From NCBI GenBank assembly GCA_964495465.1, contig CAZBWE010000001.1, positions 2,572-66,571 on the forward strand: 64,000 nt of DNA, given 5' to 3'. The notes beneath the pieces were generated by a model that worked only from the letters and a program-made list of their open reading frames with translations, was not told the DNA's origin and made no database searches. Below, piece after piece: positions 3,809 to 63,592 of the stretch. The stretch comes from an uncultured Pirellulales bacterium. Its GTDB lineage: Bacteria; Planctomycetota; Phycisphaerae; Sedimentisphaerales; Anaerobacaceae. Made by a program: the position numbers and the translations under genes. Every line of letters begins with the position of its first letter. Position 1 is the first letter of the stretch.

Positions 3809-4185
3809 AACCCGATTCTTAATTTATTTTTCGAGCTTTTGGTTTGCCTCGCCCTGCTGCACAACGTATTTATCCGAACCTCTTTCTCTTCATTTAAAGG
3901 CGCACTTACAATCACACTCAAAGCTGCCGACCGGACGTCCATATCAGTAATATCCAATTCTACGGCCTTGTCAAGGATTTTACCGCCTTCGTCCCTGATA
4001 TTTCTTTTTGTCCAGGCCAAGCCGCTCACGACCAAGTTGCGCTCAACGGCCTGGAGATAGGCGGTATCCGCCTGGAAGAGCATAGTATTCGAGCCGCCGG
4101 CCAAAACGAACATCTCGAGTCCGACTATAGCAATCGCCAGTATTACAATTACCAGAACAAAACCATTTTGTTTTATTTTTTTCAT
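3805..4185 (-). CDS. Minor pseudopilin-like protein (GspK-like N-terminus without Glu+5)
   Basis: 126 aa. The N-terminal segment KQNG/FVLVIVILAIAIVGL resembles a class III signal but lacks Glu at +5. It is the last of three small genes in the pseudopilin position of the operon. Confidence 0.5.
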   Translation of the reverse strand: MKKIKQNGFVLVIVILAIAIVGLEMFVLAGGSNTMLFQADTAYLQAVERNLVVSGLAWTKRNIRDEGGKILDKAVELDITDMDVRSAALSVIVSAPLNEEKEVRINTLCSRARQTKSSKNKLRIGL

Positions 4186-53200: not shown

Positions 53201-56200
53201 ATGCAAGAATACATTTGTAAAAAGAGAACCGTAACAAGCAGGAAAAGAAATACAAGTTTTTGGCCTGTAATATTAATTTTGTTATCAATCATGGTAGGGA
53301 CGTGTTTTTCGGGGCAAATTTTCGTCGATGCGAATGCTACCGGGAACAATGATGGTTCAAGCTGGACCAACGCCTACAATAGTTTAAAGGATGCCCTGAC
53401 TGCCGCCTCAAGTGGCGATGAAGTCCTGGTAGCCAAAGGCACTTACAAACCTGACCAAGGCAAGTCGATTACACCCGGTGACCGCGGGGCGACATTTCAA
53501 CTGATTAACGGAGTAACAATTAAAGGTGGCTACGCCAGCTCCGGTGAATCAAATTCCAATGCTCGGGACATCAATAACAACAAGACCATCCTGAGCGGCG
53601 ACCTGAGCGGCGACGATGACCCTAACTACACCAAAAACAACGATAACAGCTACAATGTGGTAACAGGTATGGGGACGGATAGGACTGCTGTGCTGGATGG
53701 CTTTACCATTTCCGGCGGTAAAGCCAGCAGTAACGGCGGCGGAGTTTATAATTACAGAGGCAGCCCAACATTGATGAATTGCGTGCTTACAGGTAATTCA
53801 GCAAACGGTAACGGCGGTGGTATGTATAACGACCAGAGCAATCCGACGCTGGTAAACTGCATGTTCATAAAAAACTCGGCAGGCGGAGCAGGCGGTGGAA
53901 TATACAATTCCACCAGCAGCCCAATACTTACAAACTGCTCATTCAGCGAGAACTCTTCCCTGAACGGGGGCGGGATATACTGCAAGTACGATAGCAACCC
54001 GACACTGACAAACTGCACGTTTATTAACAATTCGGCACGTTATAGTGGAGGGATGGCCAATTACTTAAACAGCAATTCAGTGCTGAAAAGCTGTATATTC
54101 AGCAATAACTCAGCAGATAACGGCGGCGGAATGCGCAACTATAACAGCAATCCAACACTTATCAACTGCACATTCAGTAAAAACACGGCCAAAAACGACG
54201 GCGGCGGGATTAACAACCACAGCAGCAAACCGACACTGACAAACTGTATGTTCATAGAGAACTCCGCAGAAGGATGGGGAGGCGGTATAAGAAATTATGA
54301 GAGCAGCACAAAACTGACCTGCTGCACCTCTATCGGTAATTCGGCAGGCTTAGGCGGTGGTGGTATATATAATCGCGAAAACAGTAATGCAGAACTAACC
54401 AACTGCCTTCTATGGTCAAATAAAGATGGCAGCAGCAATATTGAATCCGCACAGATTGATACGTCCGGTAGCACACCGGCTATCAACTACTGCTGCATTC
54501 AGGGCTGGACAGACACTTTAGGTGGAACCGGCAACATTAATAAAGACCCGCTGTTTGTGGACATAACCAAAGGCGATTACCATTTGCAGCCAACATCGCC
54601 CTGTGTTAATGCAGGTGATGCAAAATATGCGGCTGCGGCCGATGAAACAGACATTGATGGTGAACCAAGGGTGATTAAGAACAGAGTTGACATCGGGGCC
54701 GACGAATATAATAACCAACGCCTGGTGCCATCAATATATCCTACTATACAAGCAGCTATAGATGTTGCATACCCCGGCGATGCCGTTGTTATCAGCCCGG
54801 GCGCTTACACAGGAGCTGGCAACCAGGAAATTGACTTTAAGGGTAAGGCCATTTCTGTAGAAAGCACTAATCCAACACACCACCACGTTGTTGTTTCAAC
54901 AATTATCAATTGTGAAAACGAAGGTCGGGCATTCTACATTCACAGCGGTGAAGATGCAAACTCAATTGTAAATGGTCTGTCTATTGTAAACGGCAACGCA
55001 ACAAATGGCGGCGCTGTATATTGCAAAGACAGCAACCCGACGTTGAAAAACTGTATATTCACCCACAACACAGCTCAATACAACGGTGGCGCAATGCACA
55101 ACGAAAACAGCAACCCAACCCTGACAAATTGCACGTTTAGCGAGAATACCTGCGAACATGGCGGCGGTGGGATACATAACAACAACAGCAATCCAACAAT
55201 AATCAATTGTCCATTTAAAAACAACTGGGCCAAATACGGCGGGGGCATGCACAATCGTGACGACAGCAATCCGATACTCAAACACTGTATGTTCAGCAGA
55301 AACTCATCAACAGAAAGCGGGGCCGGGATAAACAACCAAAACAGCAATCCCACGTTAATTAACTGTATATTCAGCAACAACTCGACTGACGGCAGCGGAG
55401 GCGGTATGTTCAACCAGAGCGGCAACGCAAATCTAGCAAGCTGCAAATTCACCAATAACACAGCCAATGATAACGGCGGCGGAATTTACAACTTATACTG
55501 CGAAGCAATACTAACAGACTGCAAATTCGACGGCAACCGAGGTGAAAACCACGGTGGCGGACTGTTCAACAGCAGCAGCTCAACTTTGGTAAACTGCATA
55601 TTCAACAATAACTCAGCCGGAAGCGATGGCGGCGGGATGTTCAATCGTGAAGGCAACCCGATATTGACAAACTGCATATTTAGTGGAAACCTGAGTAATA
55701 ACAACGGTGGAGCGATGTTCAATAATAACAGTCCCAACATTACGAATTGCACATTTGGCGATAACTTTGCAAAGTCAGGCGGCGGGATTTACAACGACAA
55801 CTCCAGATTCAATTGCAAACCGACATTCACAAATTGCATCTTTTGGGACAACAAAAACTACAGTAAGGATGCCAATTCCACACAAATCTGTGGTGGTTTG
55901 CCTACTGTCAGTTACAGCTGTATCCAGAACTCTGGCCCGAACGTATATCCGGGGACCGGCAATATTAATGAGAATCCCTGCTTTACTAAACCGGGCTATT
56001 GGACTGACCCCAACGACCCAAATGCACAAACCGCATCGGATGACCCAAATGCCGTCTGGGTTGAGGGCGATTACCACCTGCTGTCACATTCACCCTGCAT
56101 TGACGCAGGGGACCCGAATTCTGATTATTCGCTGGAACCAGAGCCGAACGGCGGAAGAATCAATATAGGCACATATGGAAACACGCGTGAAGCAACATCC

Positions 56201-56302
56201 AAAAGCGGGACAGCTATCCTGTTTCGAGATATACACAATCCATTTATACTCAACGTATCAGATGAACCTCGCCAAATGTTCAGGAACTTTAAACAACCGT
56301 AG
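53201..56302 (+). CDS. Large secreted parallel beta-helix repeat protein (Pmp-like GGG[IM]xN / NC[TI]F repeats)
   Basis: 1033 aa with the N-terminal signal FWPVILILLSIMVGTCFSG. It carries dozens of ~23-aa repeats such as GGGMYNDQSNPTLVNCMFIKNSA. No PEP-CTERM or other anchor motif is visible at the C-terminus. Confidence 0.75.
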   Translation: MQEYICKKRTVTSRKRNTSFWPVILILLSIMVGTCFSGQIFVDANATGNNDGSSWTNAYNSLKDALTAASSGDEVLVAKGTYKPDQGKSITPGDRGATFQLINGVTIKGGYASSGESNSNARDINNNKTILSGDLSGDDDPNYTKNNDNSYNVVTGMGTDRTAVLDGFTISGGKASSNGGGVYNYRGSPTLMNCVLTGNSANGNGGGMYNDQSNPTLVNCMFIKNSAGGAGGGIYNSTSSPILTNCSFSENSSLNGGGIYCKYDSNPTLTNCTFINNSARYSGGMANYLNSNSVLKSCIFSNNSADNGGGMRNYNSNPTLINCTFSKNTAKNDGGGINNHSSKPTLTNCMFIENSAEGWGGGIRNYESSTKLTCCTSIGNSAGLGGGGIYNRENSNAELTNCLLWSNKDGSSNIESAQIDTSGSTPAINYCCIQGWTDTLGGTGNINKDPLFVDITKGDYHLQPTSPCVNAGDAKYAAAADETDIDGEPRVIKNRVDIGADEYNNQRLVPSIYPTIQAAIDVAYPGDAVVISPGAYTGAGNQEIDFKGKAISVESTNPTHHHVVVSTIINCENEGRAFYIHSGEDANSIVNGLSIVNGNATNGGAVYCKDSNPTLKNCIFTHNTAQYNGGAMHNENSNPTLTNCTFSENTCEHGGGGIHNNNSNPTIINCPFKNNWAKYGGGMHNRDDSNPILKHCMFSRNSSTESGAGINNQNSNPTLINCIFSNNSTDGSGGGMFNQSGNANLASCKFTNNTANDNGGGIYNLYCEAILTDCKFDGNRGENHGGGLFNSSSSTLVNCIFNNNSAGSDGGGMFNREGNPILTNCIFSGNLSNNNGGAMFNNNSPNITNCTFGDNFAKSGGGIYNDNSRFNCKPTFTNCIFWDNKNYSKDANSTQICGGLPTVSYSCIQNSGPNVYPGTGNINENPCFTKPGYWTDPNDPNAQTASDDPNAVWVEGDYHLLSHSPCIDAGDPNSDYSLEPEPNGGRINIGTYGNTREATSKSGTAILFRDIHNPFILNVSDEPRQMFRNFKQP

Positions 56303-56589
56303 AAGAAAGTTGCCAATACTGTCGAATCAAAATCTCCGGCATACAACTAACTTGGACATAAAGACTTAATAGTATTTTAAACACCTTTCTTACCGGCCAC
56401 ATCTCATTACATCGCAAAGCATTTGTATATTCTCTTAAACCGGCTTGATAGAACCGCCTTAAAATGGCGGAGAATTGACCAACAGGTTCCCAAAACCGCC
56501 CAAAAACCGATAAAAAAGTTACAATCGATACAACCGGAGGATGGAAACAAATAAACGAAGTAATCAGGAAGCAATTTAAACTTTTTTTG

Positions 56590-56617
56590 TTGACTTTATT
56601 GCAAGGTCTGATATAAT
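56590..56617 (+). promoter_or_regulatory. Sigma70-type promoter with extended -10 (copy 1)
   Basis: TTGACT (56590..56595), a 16-nt spacer ending in TGa, then TATAAT (56612..56617). Confidence 0.6.
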
Positions 56618-56798
56618 CGCAACATATAAGGATGGGTGAGTCTGAAGGGCCACACGGAAGTACCACACGTCTTTCTACTCGATGAGAAAAACGCAGAGTA
56701 TATGTGCGGATAAACCTCTATTAGGAGAGCTATTCGCACAAAAATGGAAGATTTAAAGGTTTAAATTTGGAGGAACCGAGAGATGAAAAAATTAATAA
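56590..56798 (+). repeat. 209-nt repeat, copy 1: promoter, ~160-nt 5' leader and the first 16 nt of the CDS
   Basis: Nucleotide-for-nucleotide identical to 58007..58215 (offset 1417 nt). Confidence 0.95.
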
Positions 56799-57607
56799 CG
56801 ATTTGCATGGTATTGGCATTGATATTAACCATAAGCAACGTAGCCAACGCGACCTACTACGTTAAATACGATTTCGAAACGCCCTGGAGCGGCCCCTATA
56901 CGCCGGGCTGGGACTGCTCAGGTTACCGTCACGGGGAAGAACCGGATACTAAAATGGAGCAGGTACAACTTACCGTCTTTGGCAGGTCCGGCTATGGTGT
57001 AAAAGTCTATGTAGACAGCGTTCCTGAAGATTGGATGTGGTGGGGAATAGTAGAGGTAGTAGATATGTTGGAAAACAGTATGAATACTGAATACGACCCA
57101 TGGGTAAGCGTATATATGTATGATGCCGGCTACACATCCGGCAAAGACGCTACCGGCCAGTTGTACCCTCTTCCAAGCCATGTAACCGGCGATGATGACT
57201 GGACAGATGTGCAATTTGGTGGAAGGACGGTTGCTGAGTCAGTTTACTACTACACTTGGGCAGATGTTCCTCATCCGGGGTGGCAAGCAACTTCGGTCTC
57301 AAGACCTGACCTCAACAATGATGACAATCCTGTATGGGTTCAACTAAAGATACAACTATCCAGCTCAGACAACAAGTTGCATTACTACATTAATGGCAGC
57401 GAAGTTGGTGTATCAGACCGCAATGACTATCTTGACCTTGGCTCGCTTGGCTTAGGAGTTATGTTTGATAATCCACTATCAGGTTGGGGCGGAAACAAAC
57501 CGTATGTCATCTTTGATGACTTTGAATTTGGCTCAACAATTCCTGAGCCAGCTACGATTTGTCTGTTAGGTCTTGGTGGATTGGCACTGCTGCGGAAGAA
57601 ACGCTGA
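56783..57607 (+). CDS. PEP-CTERM sorting-domain protein
   Basis: 274 aa. Signal peptide MKKLITICMVLALILTISNVANA. C-terminus IPEPATICLLGLGGLALLRKKR (PEP motif, TM segment, basic tail). Confidence 0.85.
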   Translation: MKKLITICMVLALILTISNVANATYYVKYDFETPWSGPYTPGWDCSGYRHGEEPDTKMEQVQLTVFGRSGYGVKVYVDSVPEDWMWWGIVEVVDMLENSMNTEYDPWVSVYMYDAGYTSGKDATGQLYPLPSHVTGDDDWTDVQFGGRTVAESVYYYTWADVPHPGWQATSVSRPDLNNDDNPVWVQLKIQLSSSDNKLHYYINGSEVGVSDRNDYLDLGSLGLGVMFDNPLSGWGGNKPYVIFDDFEFGSTIPEPATICLLGLGGLALLRKKR

Positions 57608-57651
57608 TTCGTACCAAAAGTATTAGTCGACTAATGTTTTTGAATCAATTC

Positions 57652-57683
57652 GGGGCCTATATCGAAAACTCGGTATAGGCCCC
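57652..57683 (+). terminator. Stem-loop downstream of PEP-CTERM gene 1 (no U-tract)
   Basis: GGGGCCTATA (57652..57661) pairs with TATAGGCCCC (57674..57683). A second perfect hairpin, CGACTTGTC-gaa-GACAAGTCG, lies at 57710..57730. Confidence 0.5.
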
Positions 57684-57748
57684 GCTGAATTCAGAGTAGA
57701 TAGAACGACCGACTTGTCGAAGACAAGTCGAGACAGTCAGCACACACC

Positions 57749-57811
57749 TTACACGTTAGTATCCCTCTTGCGTGTTGACAGAAGGATAATGTCTCCTATC
57801 GCCTCACTTCA
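57749..57811 (-). pseudogene. Relic copy of the 3' end of the permease-EIIA gene
   Basis: The minus strand reads (stop)SEAIGDIILLSTRKRDTNV(stop). The intact gene at 58964.. ends TEAIRNLILLSTRKRDTNV(stop). Weaker nucleotide similarity continues to about 57890. Confidence 0.7.
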
Positions 57812-58006
57812 CCAGTGGGTCAATCGTCATTTTTTACGTCATTTCAAGGCCTTTTTCCACAGAGAGCCCTGCCACAATCTAACAACAACACATAAATAAC
57901 CAATCGGTAAAAATGCTTATAACGAACCGTTAAAATAGCTAAAACCGATAAAATCGGAGGATAAAAAAAATAAGATAGATAATATAGAAAATATAGGTAT
58001 TTTTTC

Positions 58007-58034
58007 TTGACTTTATTGCAAGGTCTGATATAAT
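58007..58034 (+). promoter_or_regulatory. Sigma70-type promoter with extended -10 (copy 2)
   Basis: Identical to copy 1: TTGACT at 58007..58012 and TATAAT at 58029..58034. Confidence 0.6.
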
Positions 58035-58215
58035 CGCAACATATAAGGATGGGTGAGTCTGAAGGGCCACACGGAAGTACCACACGTCTTTCTACTCGAT
58101 GAGAAAAACGCAGAGTATATGTGCGGATAAACCTCTATTAGGAGAGCTATTCGCACAAAAATGGAAGATTTAAAGGTTTAAATTTGGAGGAACCGAGAGA
58201 TGAAAAAATTAATAA
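58007..58215 (+). repeat. 209-nt repeat, copy 2
   Basis: Identical to 56590..56798. Confidence 0.95.
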
Positions 58216-58865
58216 TATTCTTTGCAGCAGTTGTCATATTGTCGAATGTAGCGGTTGCAAATATCACCATTACCCCTGATATGGGTGCAAACTATACATA
58301 CCAGCGATGGGATTTTGACACGATTGTGACCATTTTGGCCAGTGGCTCCCCACCTATGGCCATTTTTTCGAATATTGCGCCTGAGACTGATCAGAATCCG
58401 TACGGCTCCCCATCAGCCACGGTTGTTACCTATGGGAGTGACGCTGGTTGGTACGACAATCGCAACGGTCAAGACGTCATGCGTGCGAGCGCCTATAAGC
58501 TGATGTCGGTAACTTTGACGATTCCAAACCTGCCGAACCCTGAATGGTTTAAGATAGTTCAAATTGAGGCTGCCTACCAAGGCGCAATGACGGACCCCAC
58601 CATCAGCGTGACGGGTGCTACGGGTACGGCTGAGAAAATCAGCGAAGTCTACGGCACAGACCAAGAGAGTTGGCCGGAAGTGACATCTACGTGGCACATC
58701 ATCCCACAACCCGAATCGGAGACTATTTTGCTTGTCTTCATGGGTGGAGCAAATGGCGTTGACCTAAACTATATTGAGGTTGCAACGGTTTGTATTGTTC
58801 CCGAGCCGGCGACGATTTGCCTGTTAGGGATAGGTGGACTGGCATTGCTGCGAAGGAAGCGCTGA
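58200..58865 (+). CDS. PEP-CTERM sorting-domain protein (mature part unrelated to the first)
   Basis: 221 aa. Signal peptide MKKLIIFFAAVVILSNVAVA. C-terminus VPEPATICLLGIGGLALLRRKR. Confidence 0.85.
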   Translation: MKKLIIFFAAVVILSNVAVANITITPDMGANYTYQRWDFDTIVTILASGSPPMAIFSNIAPETDQNPYGSPSATVVTYGSDAGWYDNRNGQDVMRASAYKLMSVTLTIPNLPNPEWFKIVQIEAAYQGAMTDPTISVTGATGTAEKISEVYGTDQESWPEVTSTWHIIPQPESETILLVFMGGANGVDLNYIEVATVCIVPEPATICLLGIGGLALLRRKR

Positions 58866-58909
58866 TTCGCATCAAAGGTATTGATTAACCAATGGTTTTG
58901 AGTTGATTC

Positions 58910-58942
58910 GAGGCCTATACTGATTAGTATGGTATAGGCCTC
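58910..58942. terminator. Stem-loop between convergent genes (candidate bidirectional terminator)
   Basis: GAGGCCTATAC (58910..58920) pairs with GTATAGGCCTC (58932..58942). It is homologous to the hairpin at 57652..57683. Confidence 0.5.
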
Positions 58943-58963
58943 GTTGTATTTAAGGTAATAACC

Positions 58964-60811
58964 TTACACGTTAGTATCTCTCTTGCGTGTTGACAGAAGG
59001 ATGAGATTTCTTATCGCCTCGGTGTCTCTGGCAGCCAGCCATCGCTTTTCAAAGTCTTTTTCCTGAGCAATCTGAGCTATAGCCATAAGTGCCCTGAGGT
59101 GATAATTTCTCTCGTCCGGACTACCTACCAGAAAGAACAGTACCCTGACAGGGTCCGGCGCGTGCGGGAAGTCAATACCTTCACGGGCACGAACAATTAG
59201 AACATCGAATTTATTCTCACCTTCAAGCACAATGTGCGGAATAGCAAAGCCCGGCTGGACCACTGTTCCGCCTTCAGCTTCGCGATGGAGGAATTTCTCG
59301 AAGAGCACATATTCATTTGTTTCCAATCTCTGGGCTAAAATGGCGGAGACCTGCCGGAAGATTTTATCAGCAGGTCTTTTACCCTCGATATCCAAGATAA
59401 CGCAATTTCTTATAAGGCGGTCGAACCTGTCTTCGATAATATCGTCGCGCTCGAACAGAATATCCCGCAGCTCTTTTTCGAGGGTGACGGTTTTTAGCTG
59501 CCTGTTAGTAACACGTTCGACGATGTGCATTGCCGCTGATGCCCTGCTGACCCGCTTGGAGACATAAAGCCAAAACCAGGCCACACTCAAAACGACAAAA
59601 CCGGCGGAAATAAGAAGCGGGACTTTTCCCATATCGATGATAAGAGCGCTATAAGCAACAACAGCAAAGACATGGAGATATGGATATAAGGGTGATTTGA
59701 ACTTCGGCCTATAACTTTGTATCCTGCTCTCGCGCATTGCAATGACACTTACATTGGTCAATATATAGAGAATTATCAAAAGGGTAGATGCGGTTTTCGC
59801 CAGCATTTCAATATCGAGGAAAATAATCGCCGTGACCATGAAGCCGGACGTTAGAACTATCGCAACGTCCGGTGTTTTGAATCGCTCGTTCACGCGAGCA
59901 AAAAAAGCCGGCAGCAGGCAGTCTCTACTCATAGCCATAGGTGAGCGTGAGGCTGCAAGTATCCCCGCATTTGCGGTAGTTACAAACGCTGCAATAGCAG
60001 CAATTGCCAGAATCACAAATCCGAACCCACCCATAAACTTGGCAGCAGCAGTTGATATAGGTGTGTAACTTGCAACCAGTTCAGCGTTGTCGACGACGCC
60101 AACCGTAACCGCAACTACAGCGATGTACAAAGTCGTCACAACAAACCAGGCCAGCAGCAATCCAAAAGGCAGATTTCTCGCAGGATTTTCCACTTCCTCA
60201 GCGACATTAACAACTTTGTTTAAACCTCCAAAGCTTACAAAAACCAGTCCTGTTGTGGCCAGCACTCCTAACCATCCTTTATCGAGAAAGCCCTCGAATC
60301 TGACAGGCCTGAGTGCTTTTAACCCCACAACTACAAAAGCAATGAGTATCAGCAACAGTATCGCCACAAGAATGACCTGAAACCTGCCCGTTTGTTTTAC
60401 ACTCAGTATGTTCAGCACAGTAAAACAAAGACAACACAAGACACCTATAGCTTTGAAATGATATTCATTAAGCTTAACTCCAAAAACAGTCTCTACCAAA
60501 AGGTCGACAAAAACTGCCATGCCAGCAACAGCAAAAGCGCTTTTCATCGCCAGAGAGAACCAGTCAGCCAGTCCGCTAAACAAACCCCCAATGGAACCGA
60601 GACTGCGTTCAACAAAAAAGTATGTCCCGCCGGCCCGTGGCATCGCCGTGGCCAGCTCTGCCTGGCTTAAGACACTGGGAACTATCAAAATCGCTGCAAA
60701 AAAATAGGATAAGATTACAGCGGGACCCGTTTTTGAATAAGCAATTGCAGGCAGAATAAACAAGCCCGAGCTTATCATAGCCCCAGCCGCTATAGAAAAC
60801 ACATCAAGCAA
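58964..60811 (-). CDS. APC-superfamily amino-acid/cation permease fused to a C-terminal PTS EIIA(Ntr/Fru)-type domain
   Basis: About 12 TM helices (GAMISSGLFILPA, TAMPRAGGTYFF). The cytoplasmic tail contains GFAIPHIVLEG...VLFFLVGSPDERNYHLRALMAIAQ. The ORF-track start is a TTG inside a conserved N-terminal motif, and the native start is probably upstream (see the finding at 60811..60928). Confidence 0.75.
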   Translation of the reverse strand: MLDVFSIAAGAMISSGLFILPAIAYSKTGPAVILSYFFAAILIVPSVLSQAELATAMPRAGGTYFFVERSLGSIGGLFSGLADWFSLAMKSAFAVAGMAVFVDLLVETVFGVKLNEYHFKAIGVLCCLCFTVLNILSVKQTGRFQVILVAILLLILIAFVVVGLKALRPVRFEGFLDKGWLGVLATTGLVFVSFGGLNKVVNVAEEVENPARNLPFGLLLAWFVVTTLYIAVVAVTVGVVDNAELVASYTPISTAAAKFMGGFGFVILAIAAIAAFVTTANAGILAASRSPMAMSRDCLLPAFFARVNERFKTPDVAIVLTSGFMVTAIIFLDIEMLAKTASTLLIILYILTNVSVIAMRESRIQSYRPKFKSPLYPYLHVFAVVAYSALIIDMGKVPLLISAGFVVLSVAWFWLYVSKRVSRASAAMHIVERVTNRQLKTVTLEKELRDILFERDDIIEDRFDRLIRNCVILDIEGKRPADKIFRQVSAILAQRLETNEYVLFEKFLHREAEGGTVVQPGFAIPHIVLEGENKFDVLIVRAREGIDFPHAPDPVRVLFFLVGSPDERNYHLRALMAIAQIAQEKDFEKRWLAARDTEAIRNLILLSTRKRDTNV

Positions 60812-60931
60812 ACCGAGTTGTTTCTTTAACGCTACTATCTTAAAACCTTCCGTGAGAACTTGGAATGTAACATTTAGAAATGCTTTTTCAAATAAACTCC
60901 ATCTTTCCTTTCTTAATTCTCCATTTTAACT

Positions 60932-61735
60932 TCAGAAAAGCAACGCCTTGCTGACTTCGCTCAAAAAAGCTGCAACTTCAGCAAGCATTTTATCTTTATT
61001 GCTCAAATTGTTCTCAATCAAACTCACTATTTTTGAACCGATTATAACGCCGTCCGCACCTGCCCGGACGATTGCCGCTGCGTGTTCGGGCTTGCTGATT
61101 CCAAAGCCCACACAAACCGGAACGCTTGTCAGCTTTTTCAGTTCGCCAATCAGTCCTTCGACCACATCAGATAACTTATCCCTGCTTCCTGTAACACCTA
61201 ACAACGAGACTGTATAAATAAAGCCGGTAGTCCTGGATGCAATGACTTTCATCCTTTCGGGTTCGGTATTTGGCGTAACTATAAAGACGGTGTCAAGACC
61301 CGCTGCAGCGGCAGCGGGCACTATTTCATCCGCATCATCGATACTTAAATCAGCGACCAGAACGCTGTTAACGCCGGCCTTGTGAAAATCGGCGAAGAAT
61401 TTTTCCGTTGGGTACTGGTAAACAAGATTGTAATACATCAAAAGGCCGATTGGGACATCCTTATAGTCTTTGACTTTCCGGATAAAATCACGGGCCTTTG
61501 CCACAGTCATACCGCTTCTCATTGCGCGGATGTCGGCTTTTTGGATAGTGGGGCCATCCGCTATCGGGTCAGAAAAGGGTATGCCTAATTCCAGAATATC
61601 GGCGCCGGCATCAATTGCAGCTTTTATAATATCGAGACTCGTATCAAAATCGGGGTCGCCGATCACGAAAAATGGTATCAAAGCAGCTTTCTTTTGTTTT
61701 GCTAACTCAGAAAAAACCTTGCTGTATGTTTTCAT
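60932..61735 (-). CDS. trpA: Tryptophan synthase alpha chain
   Basis: 267 aa. Contains ALIPFFVIGDPD, ILELGIPFSDPIADGPTIQ and GFGISKPEH. Confidence 0.9.
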   Translation of the reverse strand: MKTYSKVFSELAKQKKAALIPFFVIGDPDFDTSLDIIKAAIDAGADILELGIPFSDPIADGPTIQKADIRAMRSGMTVAKARDFIRKVKDYKDVPIGLLMYYNLVYQYPTEKFFADFHKAGVNSVLVADLSIDDADEIVPAAAAAGLDTVFIVTPNTEPERMKVIASRTTGFIYTVSLLGVTGSRDKLSDVVEGLIGELKKLTSVPVCVGFGISKPEHAAAIVRAGADGVIIGSKIVSLIENNLSNKDKMLAEVAAFLSEVSKALLF

Positions 61736-61754
61736 CCGTCAAATACCTTAAACA

Positions 61755-62936
61755 TTAATCGTTTTTTAGTGGCCTGCGTTTCTCCACGATTGAAACGTCC
61801 TTATCGCCCCTACCGGAGAGATTTACAACCGCGACGGTTTCGGCATCCAATTTATTCTTTTGGCTCATCAAATAGGCCAAGGCGTGTGCACTCTCCAGGG
61901 CGGGCAAAATACCCTCGGTTTTGCTTAAAAGCTCGAAGGCATCGAGAACCTGCTCATCTTCAGCAGCAACGTATTCAGCTCTGCCAGTATCTTTTAGTAC
62001 ACAATGCTCCGGCCCGACAGCAGGATAATCCAGGCCTGCGCTTACAGACTCTGTATCATAGACCTGGCCTTCGCCATCCTGCAGCAGATATGCCTTTGCA
62101 CCATGAAGGATGCCGACCCTGCCAGCCACGAGTGTAGCTGCGTGTTTTCCGCTGGCCAAGCTCCTGCCGCCTGCTTCGACCCCTATCAGCTTAACATCTC
62201 TATCGTCATAGAAGGCGGAGAATATGCCAATAGCATTGCTACCACCGCCGACACAGGCAACGACCATATCCGGTAATTTCCCGATTTGGTCAAGACACTG
62301 CTGCCTGGTCTCGATGCCGATGCAGGTCTGAAAATGTTTTACAATCGTAGGATACGGATGCGGCCCACAGGCAGAACCGAAAAGATAAAATGTATCGGTA
62401 ACGTGAGCAGTCCAATAGCGAAGGGCATCGTTAATTGCGTCTTTGAGTGTTCCCGTCCCGCCTTCGACAGGGATGACCTCTGCGCCGCACAATTTCATTT
62501 TATGGACATTGACACTCTGTCGTTCGATATCAGTTACACCCATAAAGATTTTCGTCTCCATCCCCAAAAAAGCCCCTATCATTGCTGTAGCCAGGCCGTG
62601 CTGGCCGGCACCGGTCTCGGCGATGAGCTTGGTCTTGCCCATATATTTGGCCAACAGGCCTTGTCCGAGCGTGTTGTTGCCCTTGTGTGCTCCGCCATGC
62701 AGAAGGTCTTCGCGTTTTAGGTAAACTTTGAAACCGACATATTCGCTGAACCTTCTCGCACAGTAGAGGGGGGTGGGTCTGCCGTTGTAATCTCTGGAAA
62801 GCTGCGCCAGCTCAGCCACAAACTGCTTATCTTCGTAAAAACGATAAAACGCCTCTTCCAATTCCTCCAAAACCGGTATCAAGACTTCCGGCACATAGAA
62901 GCCGCCATAGTCTCCGAATCTGCCTTTATATTTCAT
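61755..62936 (-). CDS. trpB: Tryptophan synthase beta chain
   Basis: 393 aa. Contains [37 protein letters not shown] and GGGSNAIG. Confidence 0.9.
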
Positions 62937-62947
62937 AGTAAATTTAC

Positions 62948-63592
62948 CTACCCTCTTAAGTGCTCAATATTCTCAAATAGTTTTTTCATTTTTTTATGGT
63001 CTTTTTTACCCGGCTCGGCTTCGACACCGCTGCAAACATCAATTCCATAAACACCCAGCTTAACTGCCTCAGCGGCGTTGTCGGGATTTATGCCGCCTGC
63101 TAAAAAAATCCGTTTCCCGATATGCCCAACGATATTCCAGTCAAAGGTCAGTCCCGTGCCGCCGTATTTTTCAGGATGAAAAGCATCCAGTAAAATAGCA
63201 TCAGTAAAGTAATTCTCTGCGAGCCGAATATCGTTTTGACTCTTCACCCGCAGCGCTTTCATAGTTCGGACGTTAAGCGAAAGAAACATCCGGCAGAACT
63301 TCGGGCTTTCATCTCCGTGCAACTGCACCCAGTTCAACCGGCAGTGTTTTATCGTTTCATTGATTTTACCAAATGATTCATTTTCGTCGCTGCCCGCCTC
63401 ATGCACAAACACACCGGCAACATCCATAAAACCGGGCAGTTTGGCTATTATCTCTGCGGCCTTATCAGGCGTTATAAATCTCGGGCTTTTCTGATAAAAA
63501 TTAAATCCCAGTAAATCAGCACCCATATCAACCGCGGCAGAAGCATCTTCATAATTGGTAATGCCACAAATTTTGACCTTAACTATCAACAT
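62948..63592 (-). CDS. trpF: Phosphoribosylanthranilate isomerase
   Basis: 214 aa. Contains [32 protein letters not shown] and GIDVCSGVE. Confidence 0.85.

Follow-up and report, generated by a model that had tools for sequence, protein, structure and literature searches.

The window analyzed here (a stretch of 64,000 nucleotides from the planctomycete contig CAZBWE010000001.1) carries two neighboring genes for unrelated PEP-CTERM proteins, each of which is preceded by the same promoter and the same long 5' leader. We found that the 209-nucleotide (nt) identity of the two gene heads goes back, very probably, to recent non-reciprocal recombination (gene conversion of copy 1 by copy 2) and not to purifying selection. 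The gene-converted cassette head holds a small, previously undescribed candidate leader motif of a narrow planctomycete clade, which consists of the sequence UAAGGAU and a 45-nt stem-loop. Because of its covariation this motif is likely to be a functional element at the RNA level, and it is probably a protein-binding or stabilizing element. As best overall explanation we advance, with moderate confidence, a converted cassette head plus a conserved leader element, for which binding of a CsrA/Rsm-type protein is proposed.

Positions 56590-56798 of the window are identical to positions 58007-58215, and the identity extends upstream to 56583/58000 (216 nt) with a single G/C mismatch directly 5' of the -35 box. 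A 40-mer taken from the leader occurs at two sites only in the 64 kilobases (kb) of the window, and shuffled sequences are expected to contain none. The repeat includes a promoter, a leader of about 160 nt, a Shine-Dalgarno (SD) sequence (GGAGGA) and the first five codons. The promoter (TTGACT-N16-TATAAT with a TG before the -10 box) matches the consensus at 11 of 12 positions. Both downstream open reading frames (ORFs) score above the PF07589 cut-off for PEP-CTERM proteins (20.7 bits) with 25.3 bits for gene 1 and 25.1 bits for gene 2, and in the window PEP-CTERM tails were found in these two genes only. Similarity between the two gene products is confined to the last 22 residues. An earlier reading of this DNA (the original prediction) had described the exact 209-nt repeat, its extended -10 promoter, a 5' untranslated region of about 160 nt with SD and five codons, and coding regions that share nothing until the PEP-CTERM tail; all of this was borne out. 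The features of the two cassettes on which our analysis relies are as follows.

56490-56589, plus strand: AT-rich region that precedes the copy-1 promoter, carries repeats resembling TAAAAT(C/A)G and shows moderate conservation in all module copies; the nhmmer matches start here.
56590-56617, plus strand: copy-1 sigma-70-type promoter (-35 TTGACT at 56590-95, 16-nt spacer, TG at 56609-10, -10 TATAAT at 56612-17).
56627-56634, plus strand: single-stranded motif UAAGGAUG with the first GGA site (UAAGGAU in six of seven copies).
56637-56681, plus strand: conserved stem-loop P1-P2-P3 of copy 1 (RNAalifold for P1 and P2, pair counts for P3, covariance model R1 with 88 bits).
56637-41 with 56677-81, plus strand: helix P1.
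56644-50 (GAAGGGC) with 56669-75 (GUCUUUC), plus strand: helix P2.
56651-53 with 56660-62, plus strand: helix P3.
56654-59, plus strand: hexaloop ACGGAA.
56663-68, plus strand: bulge CCACAC.
56682-56782, plus strand: lineage-specific 3' leader of copy 1 with upstream ORF (uORF), stem-loop, AU hairpin and SD.
56682-56756, plus strand: uORF of 24 codons.
56703-56740, plus strand: stem-loop of the 3' leader, present in the minimum free energy (MFE) fold.
56751-66, plus strand: AU hairpin, present in the MFE fold.
56769-74, plus strand: SD GGAGGA.
56783-57607, plus strand: PEP-CTERM gene 1 (274 amino acids, PF07589, ATG at 56783).
57907-58034, plus strand: copy-2 AT-rich region and promoter (-35 at 58007-12, -10 at 58029-34).
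58044-58098, plus strand: copy-2 UAAGGAUG (58044-51) and stem-loop (P1-P2-P3 at 58054-58098, hexaloop at 58071-76).
58099-58199, plus strand: copy-2 lineage-specific 3' leader, same sequence as in copy 1.
58200-58865, plus strand: PEP-CTERM gene 2 (221 amino acids, PF07589).

Copy-2 coordinates equal those of copy 1 plus 1417, and model R1 matches copy 2 at 58035-58103 with 88 bits. From the promoter, transcription is predicted to start near 56624, and the AT-rich region upstream is likely to be an UP-like or activator region.

The proteins of genes 1 and 2 are encoded on contigs of about 30 metagenome samples and we fetched 16 of these loci. Their identity to the window was 99.73-100% over 4-14 kb. 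A divergent copy-1 leader was observed in seven of these loci (L002, L003, L005, L006, L007, L009, L016), which makes 7 of 11 assemblies of the near-clonal population; within the repeat, 11 substitutions and one indel separate it from the window leader. When the linked single-nucleotide polymorphism (SNP) at 56564, just outside the repeat, is taken into account, there are 12 differing positions and all of them lie in 56564-56662. For L006 and L007, all 12 differences found in 8.9-9.3 kb fall into this 99-nt stretch, and for L005-L007 and L009 it holds all, or all but one, of 12-13 differences. At the 11 sites inside the repeat (56564 being outside) copy 1 of the window carries the copy-2 state. 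Copy 2 equaled the window sequence in six of the seven assemblies that reach copy 2 plus either gene 1 or its own upstream flank; the exception (L003) covers the first 26 nt of the repeat only and has one mismatch in copy 2. Such clustering of differences in a near-clonal background, with one of the haplotypes equal to the paralog, is the signature of non-reciprocal recombination. Thus, the conversion tract itself is seen in these loci, and the invariance of copy 2 suggests the direction of the conversion. The last 133 nt of the repeat (56666-56798) are the same in every haplotype, and since this segment is not conserved between species we read its identity as an older, fixed conversion. In the original prediction the zero divergence had been taken as a mark of leader function. 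This conclusion does not hold, as the identity is very probably that of a recent gene-conversion tract and the copy-1 leaders of sister strains differ.

Alternatively, the identity might be an assembly artefact, in which a repeat collapse or a chimeric path placed copy-2 sequence before gene 1. Many metagenome contigs indeed break inside the repeat (L010, L013, L014, L003), and L012 and L016 join the copy-1 upstream region straight to gene 2, so that assemblers evidently struggle here. However, the fully identical haplotype was found in the window and was assembled independently in at least four samples (L001, L004, L008, L012), for which reason the artefact objection raised together with the original prediction does not apply. 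Moreover, the haplotypes are tied to the flanking SNPs 56564 and 56570 outside the repeat, and the 5' junction shares only about 15 nt (TTTTTT.TTGACTTT), which appears too short for a switch in the assembly graph. We consider an artefact extremely improbable.

Loci L012, L014 and L016 have a one-cassette form, in which a copy-1-type leader is joined directly to gene 2 and gene 1 is absent. This corresponds to an exact deletion of a 1417-nt unit (window 56583-56798 joined to 58216 onward; junctions at L012:4242-4457, L016:4888-5104 and L014:1-170). In L016 and L014 the 5' leader is of the divergent copy-1 type. Either this form reflects a genuine deletion through recombination of the direct repeats, or the assembler collapsed the repeat. 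At a second locus, L024 (=L040), two adjacent PEP-CTERM genes (1102-1734 and 1758-2423) share identical first 32 codons (MKKLITFCAVSAMLLAASPAQAVPMEATVTFD), and L042 (1007-1672) has one of these two genes only, with the middle gene absent. This pair shows head homogenization and deletion, and it has 23-nt spacers and no leader module.

Gene conversion between paralogs is well known from tufA/tufB, opa and pil, and the window locus resembles these systems in its sharply bounded identity tract between diverged flanks, in its polymorphism, in that the tract stops where homology stops, and in the deletion or duplication variants between direct repeats. In contrast to these systems, the tract in the window is a promoter-leader head, so that regulatory and not antigenic coding sequence is swapped. 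The identity itself is ordinary concerted evolution between paralogs.

Further copies of the leader, as sought on the basis of the original prediction, were found in relatives (L024, three in L037, and L035). A scan of the genome collection with the 18-mer CCACACGTCTTTCTACTC gave one true match (L024) and two chance matches in coding DNA. When metagenomes were scanned with this 18-mer and an additional exclusion base, L017 and chance matches alone were returned; contigs of the L024 type were missed there, since their base at the exclusion position is T. The L024 contig (5.9 kb) comes from a metagenome-assembled genome labelled Pirellulales, and in it the module sits before a third, unrelated PEP-CTERM gene. 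Since this contig type is present in two Joint Genome Institute (JGI) samples that also hold the window locus, it may be a third paralog of the window organism. L037 represents the orthologous locus in a related species and was reached via a protein 85% identical to that of gene 1 (L037b), which belongs to the same protein cluster, and the gene-1 protein has a family of about 50 homologs. Here, three tandem PEP-CTERM genes with one module each (L037a, L037b, L037c; modules 70-80% identical to one another) precede the permease end. Model R1 alone led to a distant copy, L035 (positions 192-257; 27 bits, E-value 2e-5 over 154 kb). It is located 60 nt upstream of the first gene in a three-gene PEP-CTERM array, the product of which is 30% identical to that of gene 2. 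The helices of L035 differ in sequence, but all model pairs except one are canonical (14 of 15; the remaining pair coincides with a gap in the alignment). L035 retains UAAGGAUGG and a loop AUGGAA, and no matching promoter is evident upstream.

L017 carries a relative of gene 2 (85% amino acid identity overall), which has two mismatches over about 70 nt of aligned coding sequence and a different 3' leader. This combination indicates that heads and bodies have separate histories. An element of the insertion sequence (IS) family IS3 stands in place of everything upstream of CCACACG. It spans L017:332-1612, has orfA/orfB with HTH_Tnp_1 and rve domains and inverted repeats (TGATCTGACCCC / TGGTCTGACCCC), lies immediately 5' of CCACACG and has removed the promoter together with half of the stem-loop on the 5' side; a clear target-site duplication was not seen for this insertion.

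The proteins of L037a/b/c, L024, L035 and L017 reach 23.3-27.5 bits with PF07589. Taken together, all seven genes behind the module pass the cut-off and they encode five unrelated mature domains. We found no leader similarity (blastn, nhmmer, covariance model) upstream of the gene-1 homologs at 66-69% identity (L018-L022) or, L035 excepted, of the gene-2 homologs at about 58% (L031-L036), and permease orthologs at 82-84% (L045, L046) have no cassettes beside the permease. The absence of the module from these homologs indicates a narrow family.

Comparison of the copies defined which part of the head is conserved. The core from the -35 box to CUC (about 91 nt) is 68-87% identical among copies, and between window and ortholog it reaches 81%, with 83% for the coding sequence. 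For the upstream 100 nt the values are 52-68%. The 3' leader drops to 43-57%, which is noise level, and varies from 52 to 102 nt in the homologs, ortholog included. In the six close copies the promoter hexamers are kept and the 5' half of the spacer is variable, the pattern expected for a real promoter. As judged from these alignments, what selection keeps of the head is confined to the promoter and the initial ~65 nt of the transcript, and the 3' ~100 nt of the leader are lineage-specific. The unpaired parts UAAGGAU, the loop C-A-N-GGA-N-G (seven of seven copies) and the bulge CCAC(A/G)C are conserved in sequence, which suggests that a trans-acting factor recognizes them; the sequences of both P2 strands are kept as well. 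A small ORF through the core (ATG at 56632, 17 codons) was rejected as the conserved entity: L037a and L037b have ATA there, L037c is frameshifted and the substitutions are mostly non-synonymous.

The original prediction had regarded the whole leader of about 160 nt as a single structured cis-regulatory RNA, and strong purifying selection might preserve the identity of a riboswitch-like RNA of this size. Compared with shuffled sequences, the leader has a somewhat better fold (MFE -38.8 kcal/mol, z-score -2.33) and its identity contrasts with the 80% of the flanks. Searches of the window against Rfam 15 gave no match at gathering thresholds, and even at E≤10 nothing overlapped the leader; no match at E≤1 was obtained for the relatives L024, L035, L037 and L017. 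The original prediction, which did not recognize the leader as any known riboswitch class, was correct in this respect, and a whole-leader RNA would be new. A weak SAM-II-like match in the AT-rich region upstream of the copy-1 promoter (56461-56523; 20.8 bits against a gathering threshold of 44, E-value 0.67) was taken as chance. However, copy 1 is polymorphic within the population, and the stem-loop at 56703-56740 and the AU hairpin, both named in the original prediction and present in the MFE fold, belong to the 3' 102 nt, for which no alignment is possible even between orthologs. The hairpin at 56703-56740 is followed by an A-run instead of a U-run and is thus not an attenuator. The predicted uORF is present in the window, but its region is not conserved and the encoded peptides are unrelated in the window, L024 and L017, so that we rejected a leader peptide. 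Similarly, the two CCACACG repeats exist (one corresponds to the P3/loop region, the other to the bulge and the beginning of the 3' strand of P2), but their alternative or pseudoknot pairing with the G-rich 5' segment was dismissed, since the partners are not conserved (AAAC in L037a). We consider a whole-leader RNA very improbable. What stands of the predicted structured RNA is a conserved, covarying stem-loop at 56637-56681 plus UAAGGAU at 56627-56633, and the element originally described is not conserved.

The uORFs of L024 (3877-3942, 21 codons) and L017 (1675-1722, 15 codons) end in a TGA stop that overlaps the main ATG (ATGA). The window uORF is in the same frame, with its stop 27 nt earlier. 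The overlap with the start codon may be chance or translational coupling.

For the stem-loop we used a MAFFT alignment of six core leaders (A6) and an alignment of seven distinct sequences including L035 (A7). RNAalifold on A6 gave P1 (UGAGU with ACUCG) and P2 (GGAGGRC with GUCUUUC), and together they are the MFE structure in five of six single sequences. P3, which closes the hexaloop, was added manually on the strength of complementary changes, and pair counts served as its test; model R1 was built on the P1-P2-P3 structure. In A6, 92% of the cells were paired (A7: 93%), and this share dropped to 38-51% (A7: 39-52%) when the partner was slid by 1-3 columns. Both sides had changed in 4 of 15 pairs in A6 and in 8 of 15 in A7. 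The covariation score was 0.298 for A6 (shuffled 0.196 ± 0.033) and 0.463 for A7 (shuffled 0.203 ± 0.040), and none of 500 shuffles reached either value. These values support covariation in this stem-loop, for which the original prediction had suggested a test on homologous leaders. Next to the loop, pair 38:45 is C-G in all seven copies and pair 37:46 covaries (A-U four times, G-C twice, U-G once).

Conservation might also be located at the DNA level, in the form of a transcription-factor operator a short distance 3' of the start site. Since promoter and AT-rich region are conserved as well, transcriptional control is certainly part of the module. However, compensatory changes 20-45 nt apart in 8 of 15 pairs are unexpected for a protein-DNA operator and L035 keeps the pairs and not the sequence. 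An operator as reason for this conservation is therefore hardly credible.

Which factor might recognize such an RNA element? The conserved GGA sites at 56630-32 and 56656-58 lie 26 nt apart near the 5' end, and the hexaloop reads A-N-GGA-N and is closed by P3, so that its GGA is placed in a hairpin loop. CsrA/Rsm proteins bind the consensus sequences A/UCANGGANGU/A and RUACARGGAUGU, the latter with its GGA in a hairpin loop (PMC6849547, PMC4347634). The segment 56652-61 (ACACGGAAGU) agrees with A/UCANGGANGU/A and with WCANGGANGW at every position, and the family consensus CUACAAGGAUGU agrees at 11 of 12 positions with RUACARGGAUGU, which was obtained by systematic evolution of ligands by exponential enrichment (SELEX). 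The SD GGAGGA also includes a GGA, as any strong SD would, and is located about 110 nt from the loop site. CsrA and FliW have been reported for the phylum Planctomycetes (PMC4682653). In the proposed mechanism, a CsrA/Rsm-type protein that recognizes GGA in hairpin loops would bind the hexaloop and the upstream UAAGGAU, and this binding would co-regulate translation and/or stability of all PEP-CTERM mRNAs with the module. This assignment is tentative and we are more sceptical than confident about it.

The module shares with the CsrA/RsmA-RsmE leaders (hcnA, glgC, hag) and the CsrB/RsmZ hairpins the GGA in an A-N-GGA-N hexaloop with a C-G closing pair followed by a covarying pair, and it has a second GGA 26 nt upstream and a third in the SD. 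In contrast to these sites, its loop is about 110 nt away from the SD and the hairpin stands atop a longer conserved P1-P2 stem, which known CsrA sites do not need. The likeness is drawn from sequence and predicted structure, and membership of the class cannot be claimed without the protein. Among the papers of the searched library none connects PEP-CTERM genes to CsrA or to an RNA motif, and we found no report of PEP-CTERM genes in Planctomycetota as CsrA targets.

The main rival to a dedicated regulator is a constitutive mRNA stabilizer or expression enhancer for abundant envelope proteins, formed by the 5' stem-loop and the SD-like UAAGGA. Hairpins of ompA, Gram-positive STAB-SD sequences and S-layer leaders are 5' mRNA stabilizers on strongly expressed genes. 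Like the leaders of Escherichia coli ompA, of Bacillus thuringiensis cryIIIA (STAB-SD) and of S-layer genes, the module has a long leader on an envelope-protein gene, a conserved stem-loop near the 5' end and, at a large distance 5' of the real SD, a sequence that resembles an SD. The near-consensus promoter and the strong SD fit a high-expression cassette, the stem-loop is conserved and covarying, and UAAGGA, about 4-10 nt from the predicted 5' end, is complementary to the 3' end of 16S rRNA. However, 5'-end protection usually needs a hairpin at the extreme end, and here about 13 unpaired nt precede P1. In addition, the stem is not unusually stable, and the conserved sequences of hexaloop, bulge and P2 strands suggest specific recognition rather than mere stability. 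A pure stabilizer appears unlikely to us, although less so than the other rivals considered.

The module may also be connected with translation initiation. The stretch 56668-56675 (CGUCUUUC), which includes the P2 3' strand, is fully complementary (G-U allowed) to 56778-56785 (GAGAGAUG), which ends in the start codon. The same holds for copy 2 (58085-58092 with 58195-58202) and for L024 (3855-3862 with 3933-3940, where the start-side sequence is the variant GAAAGAUG). In the full leaders W (window), V (divergent copy-1 type) and L024, CGUCUUUC is predicted to be paired with GA(G/A)AGAUG at the start codon (probability 0.88-0.98), and in those of L037a, L037c and L035 P2 itself is predicted to form (probability 0.86-0.99). 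In the window leader a CsrA/Rsm-type protein might act through a competition of P2 with the long-range pairing of the pyrimidine strand CGUCUUUC with GAGAGAUG.

Such alternative pairing might also be expected if the stem-loop were a small ligand-sensing riboswitch aptamer with a variable platform, in which CGUCUUUC pairs either with P2 or with the start codon. In line with this possibility, a conserved 5' part is followed by a variable 3' part, loop and bulge nucleotides are conserved and the start-region pairing is predicted in W, V and L024. However, the alternative pairing is absent in three of seven copies and the element is a single bulged hairpin, with no multi-helix junction, no supported pseudoknot and no resemblance to any Rfam aptamer. 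PEP-CTERM cargo genes have no evident metabolite link either. Riboswitches and attenuators combine a multi-helix aptamer with a terminator/antiterminator or an SD-sequestering platform; here, sequestration of the start codon is predicted in three of seven copies only. An aptamer is accordingly quite improbable.

Several observations weigh against the combination of gene conversion, RNA element and CsrA/Rsm-type binding that we prefer. As to the conversion, its direction is merely suggested by the invariance of copy 2 and a third sequence may have been the donor. As to the RNA element, the seven distinct sequences come from three lineages only, some covariation events are shared by descent and the U-A/C-G split in P1 follows species. 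A7 was fitted to the model, so that its pair counts lean towards the structure. P3 has 2-3 base pairs; it lies outside the MFE fold in four copies and inside it only in L037a and L037c. The stability of the stem-loop is ordinary (z-scores -0.75 to +0.75) and, with z near 0, the thermodynamic stability of the core was not accepted as an argument for structure. The predicted transcription start rests on the promoter. As to the binding protein, no csrA was found in the window or in the fetched loci by tblastn with E. coli and B. subtilis CsrA, and the distance of about 110 nt between loop GGA and SD exceeds the usual distance for two-site bridging. The motif WCANGGANGW occurs 13 times on both strands of the window, compared with 6.4 ± 2.4 in shuffled sequences (0 of 100 reach 13). 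Since the motif is so common, a single match means little and the weight lies in its conservation at one position. Finally, the start-codon pairing is not predicted in L037a, L037b and L035. As this pairing is not family-wide and stands outside the covariation test, the switch is offered as a model-based proposal.

Genes 1 and 2 are tandem cassettes of a small planctomycete family of PEP-CTERM (exosortase-sorted) surface proteins. In each cassette, the AT-rich upstream region, a strong sigma-70 promoter, the leader and the initial codons form a head that is homologous between the units. The middle is unrelated, and the tail, made up of the PEP-CTERM anchor and the terminator, is again homologous. 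The remaining features of the locus are the following.

57651-57684, plus strand: GC-rich hairpin 3' of gene 1, homologous to the gene-2 terminator, without a clear U-run.
57746-57805, plus strand: relic of a permease 3' end (60 nt), 90% identical to 58961-59020.
58909-58943, plus strand: intrinsic-terminator-like hairpin with a T-rich tail, 3' of gene 2.
58964-60811, minus strand: permease ORF.

The 3' flanks of the two units are 80% identical over 122 nt, which agrees with the original prediction, and 90% identical over 60 nt. What needs to be corrected is the 5' flank: about 100 nt 5' of the -35 box can also be aligned between the copies, at about 68% identity. This homologous upstream flank indicates that the units go back to an old tandem duplication and that their 5' end was homogenized. 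PEP-CTERM tail and terminator hairpin are 80% identical between the units, and the originally duplicated unit consisted of head, body, tail and the end of the neighboring gene, the permease. In their present state the flanks are diverged and the bodies unrelated, and the head alone is identical.

Just upstream of the cassettes (53201-56302) we observed a gene for a secreted right-handed beta-helix protein of 1033 amino acids with Chlamydia-PMP-type repeats, and its DNA has a 78-nt (26-codon) periodicity with many diverged repeat copies. On the other side (58964-63592, minus strand), an amino-acid permease fused to a phosphotransferase system (PTS) EIIA-2 domain adjoins trpA and trpB, and on longer contigs of the same locus trpF-trpD-trpG-trpE are also near the permease. 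Relatives with an 82-84% identical permease have another neighborhood there, without trp operon and without PEP-CTERM cassettes. The closest permease homologs that carry a name (72-74% identity) are labelled Planctomycetota, Phycisphaerae or Sedimentisphaerales, in keeping with an organism of the Planctomycetota.

PEP-CTERM/exosortase protein sorting was reportedly described by Haft et al. in 2006. The cassettes conform to this system (PF07589) in that all seven genes end in a PEP-CTERM anchor and form tandem arrays of unrelated small secreted proteins. The recombining head and tail around variable bodies resemble, by analogy, other surface-protein families. As far as is known, the regulation described for PEP-CTERM genes is transcriptional and involves PrsK/PrsR with sigma-54. 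In contrast, the window cassettes have a sigma-70-type promoter and a leader RNA motif.

Regulation of PEP-CTERM/exosortase cargo is poorly understood and in the searched library we found nothing on it for Planctomycetota. A leader element common to five unrelated mature domains is a testable handle on their co-regulation, and the locus is a clean natural case in which gene conversion moves a regulatory module between unrelated bodies and is still polymorphic. For genome scans, perfect identity of paralogous non-coding regions points first to recombination, and sister strains together with orthologs separate the selected part from the remainder. A more far-reaching scenario, which we consider speculative and rather unlikely, is that the stem-loop with UAAGGAU is the hallmark of a new post-transcriptional regulon of Planctomycetota, in which a CsrA-like or other trans-acting factor would jointly switch translation of the PEP-CTERM cargo via the toggle between P2 and the start codon. 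If this were true, the recombining head would recruit new cargo and let a newly acquired cargo gene join the regulon.

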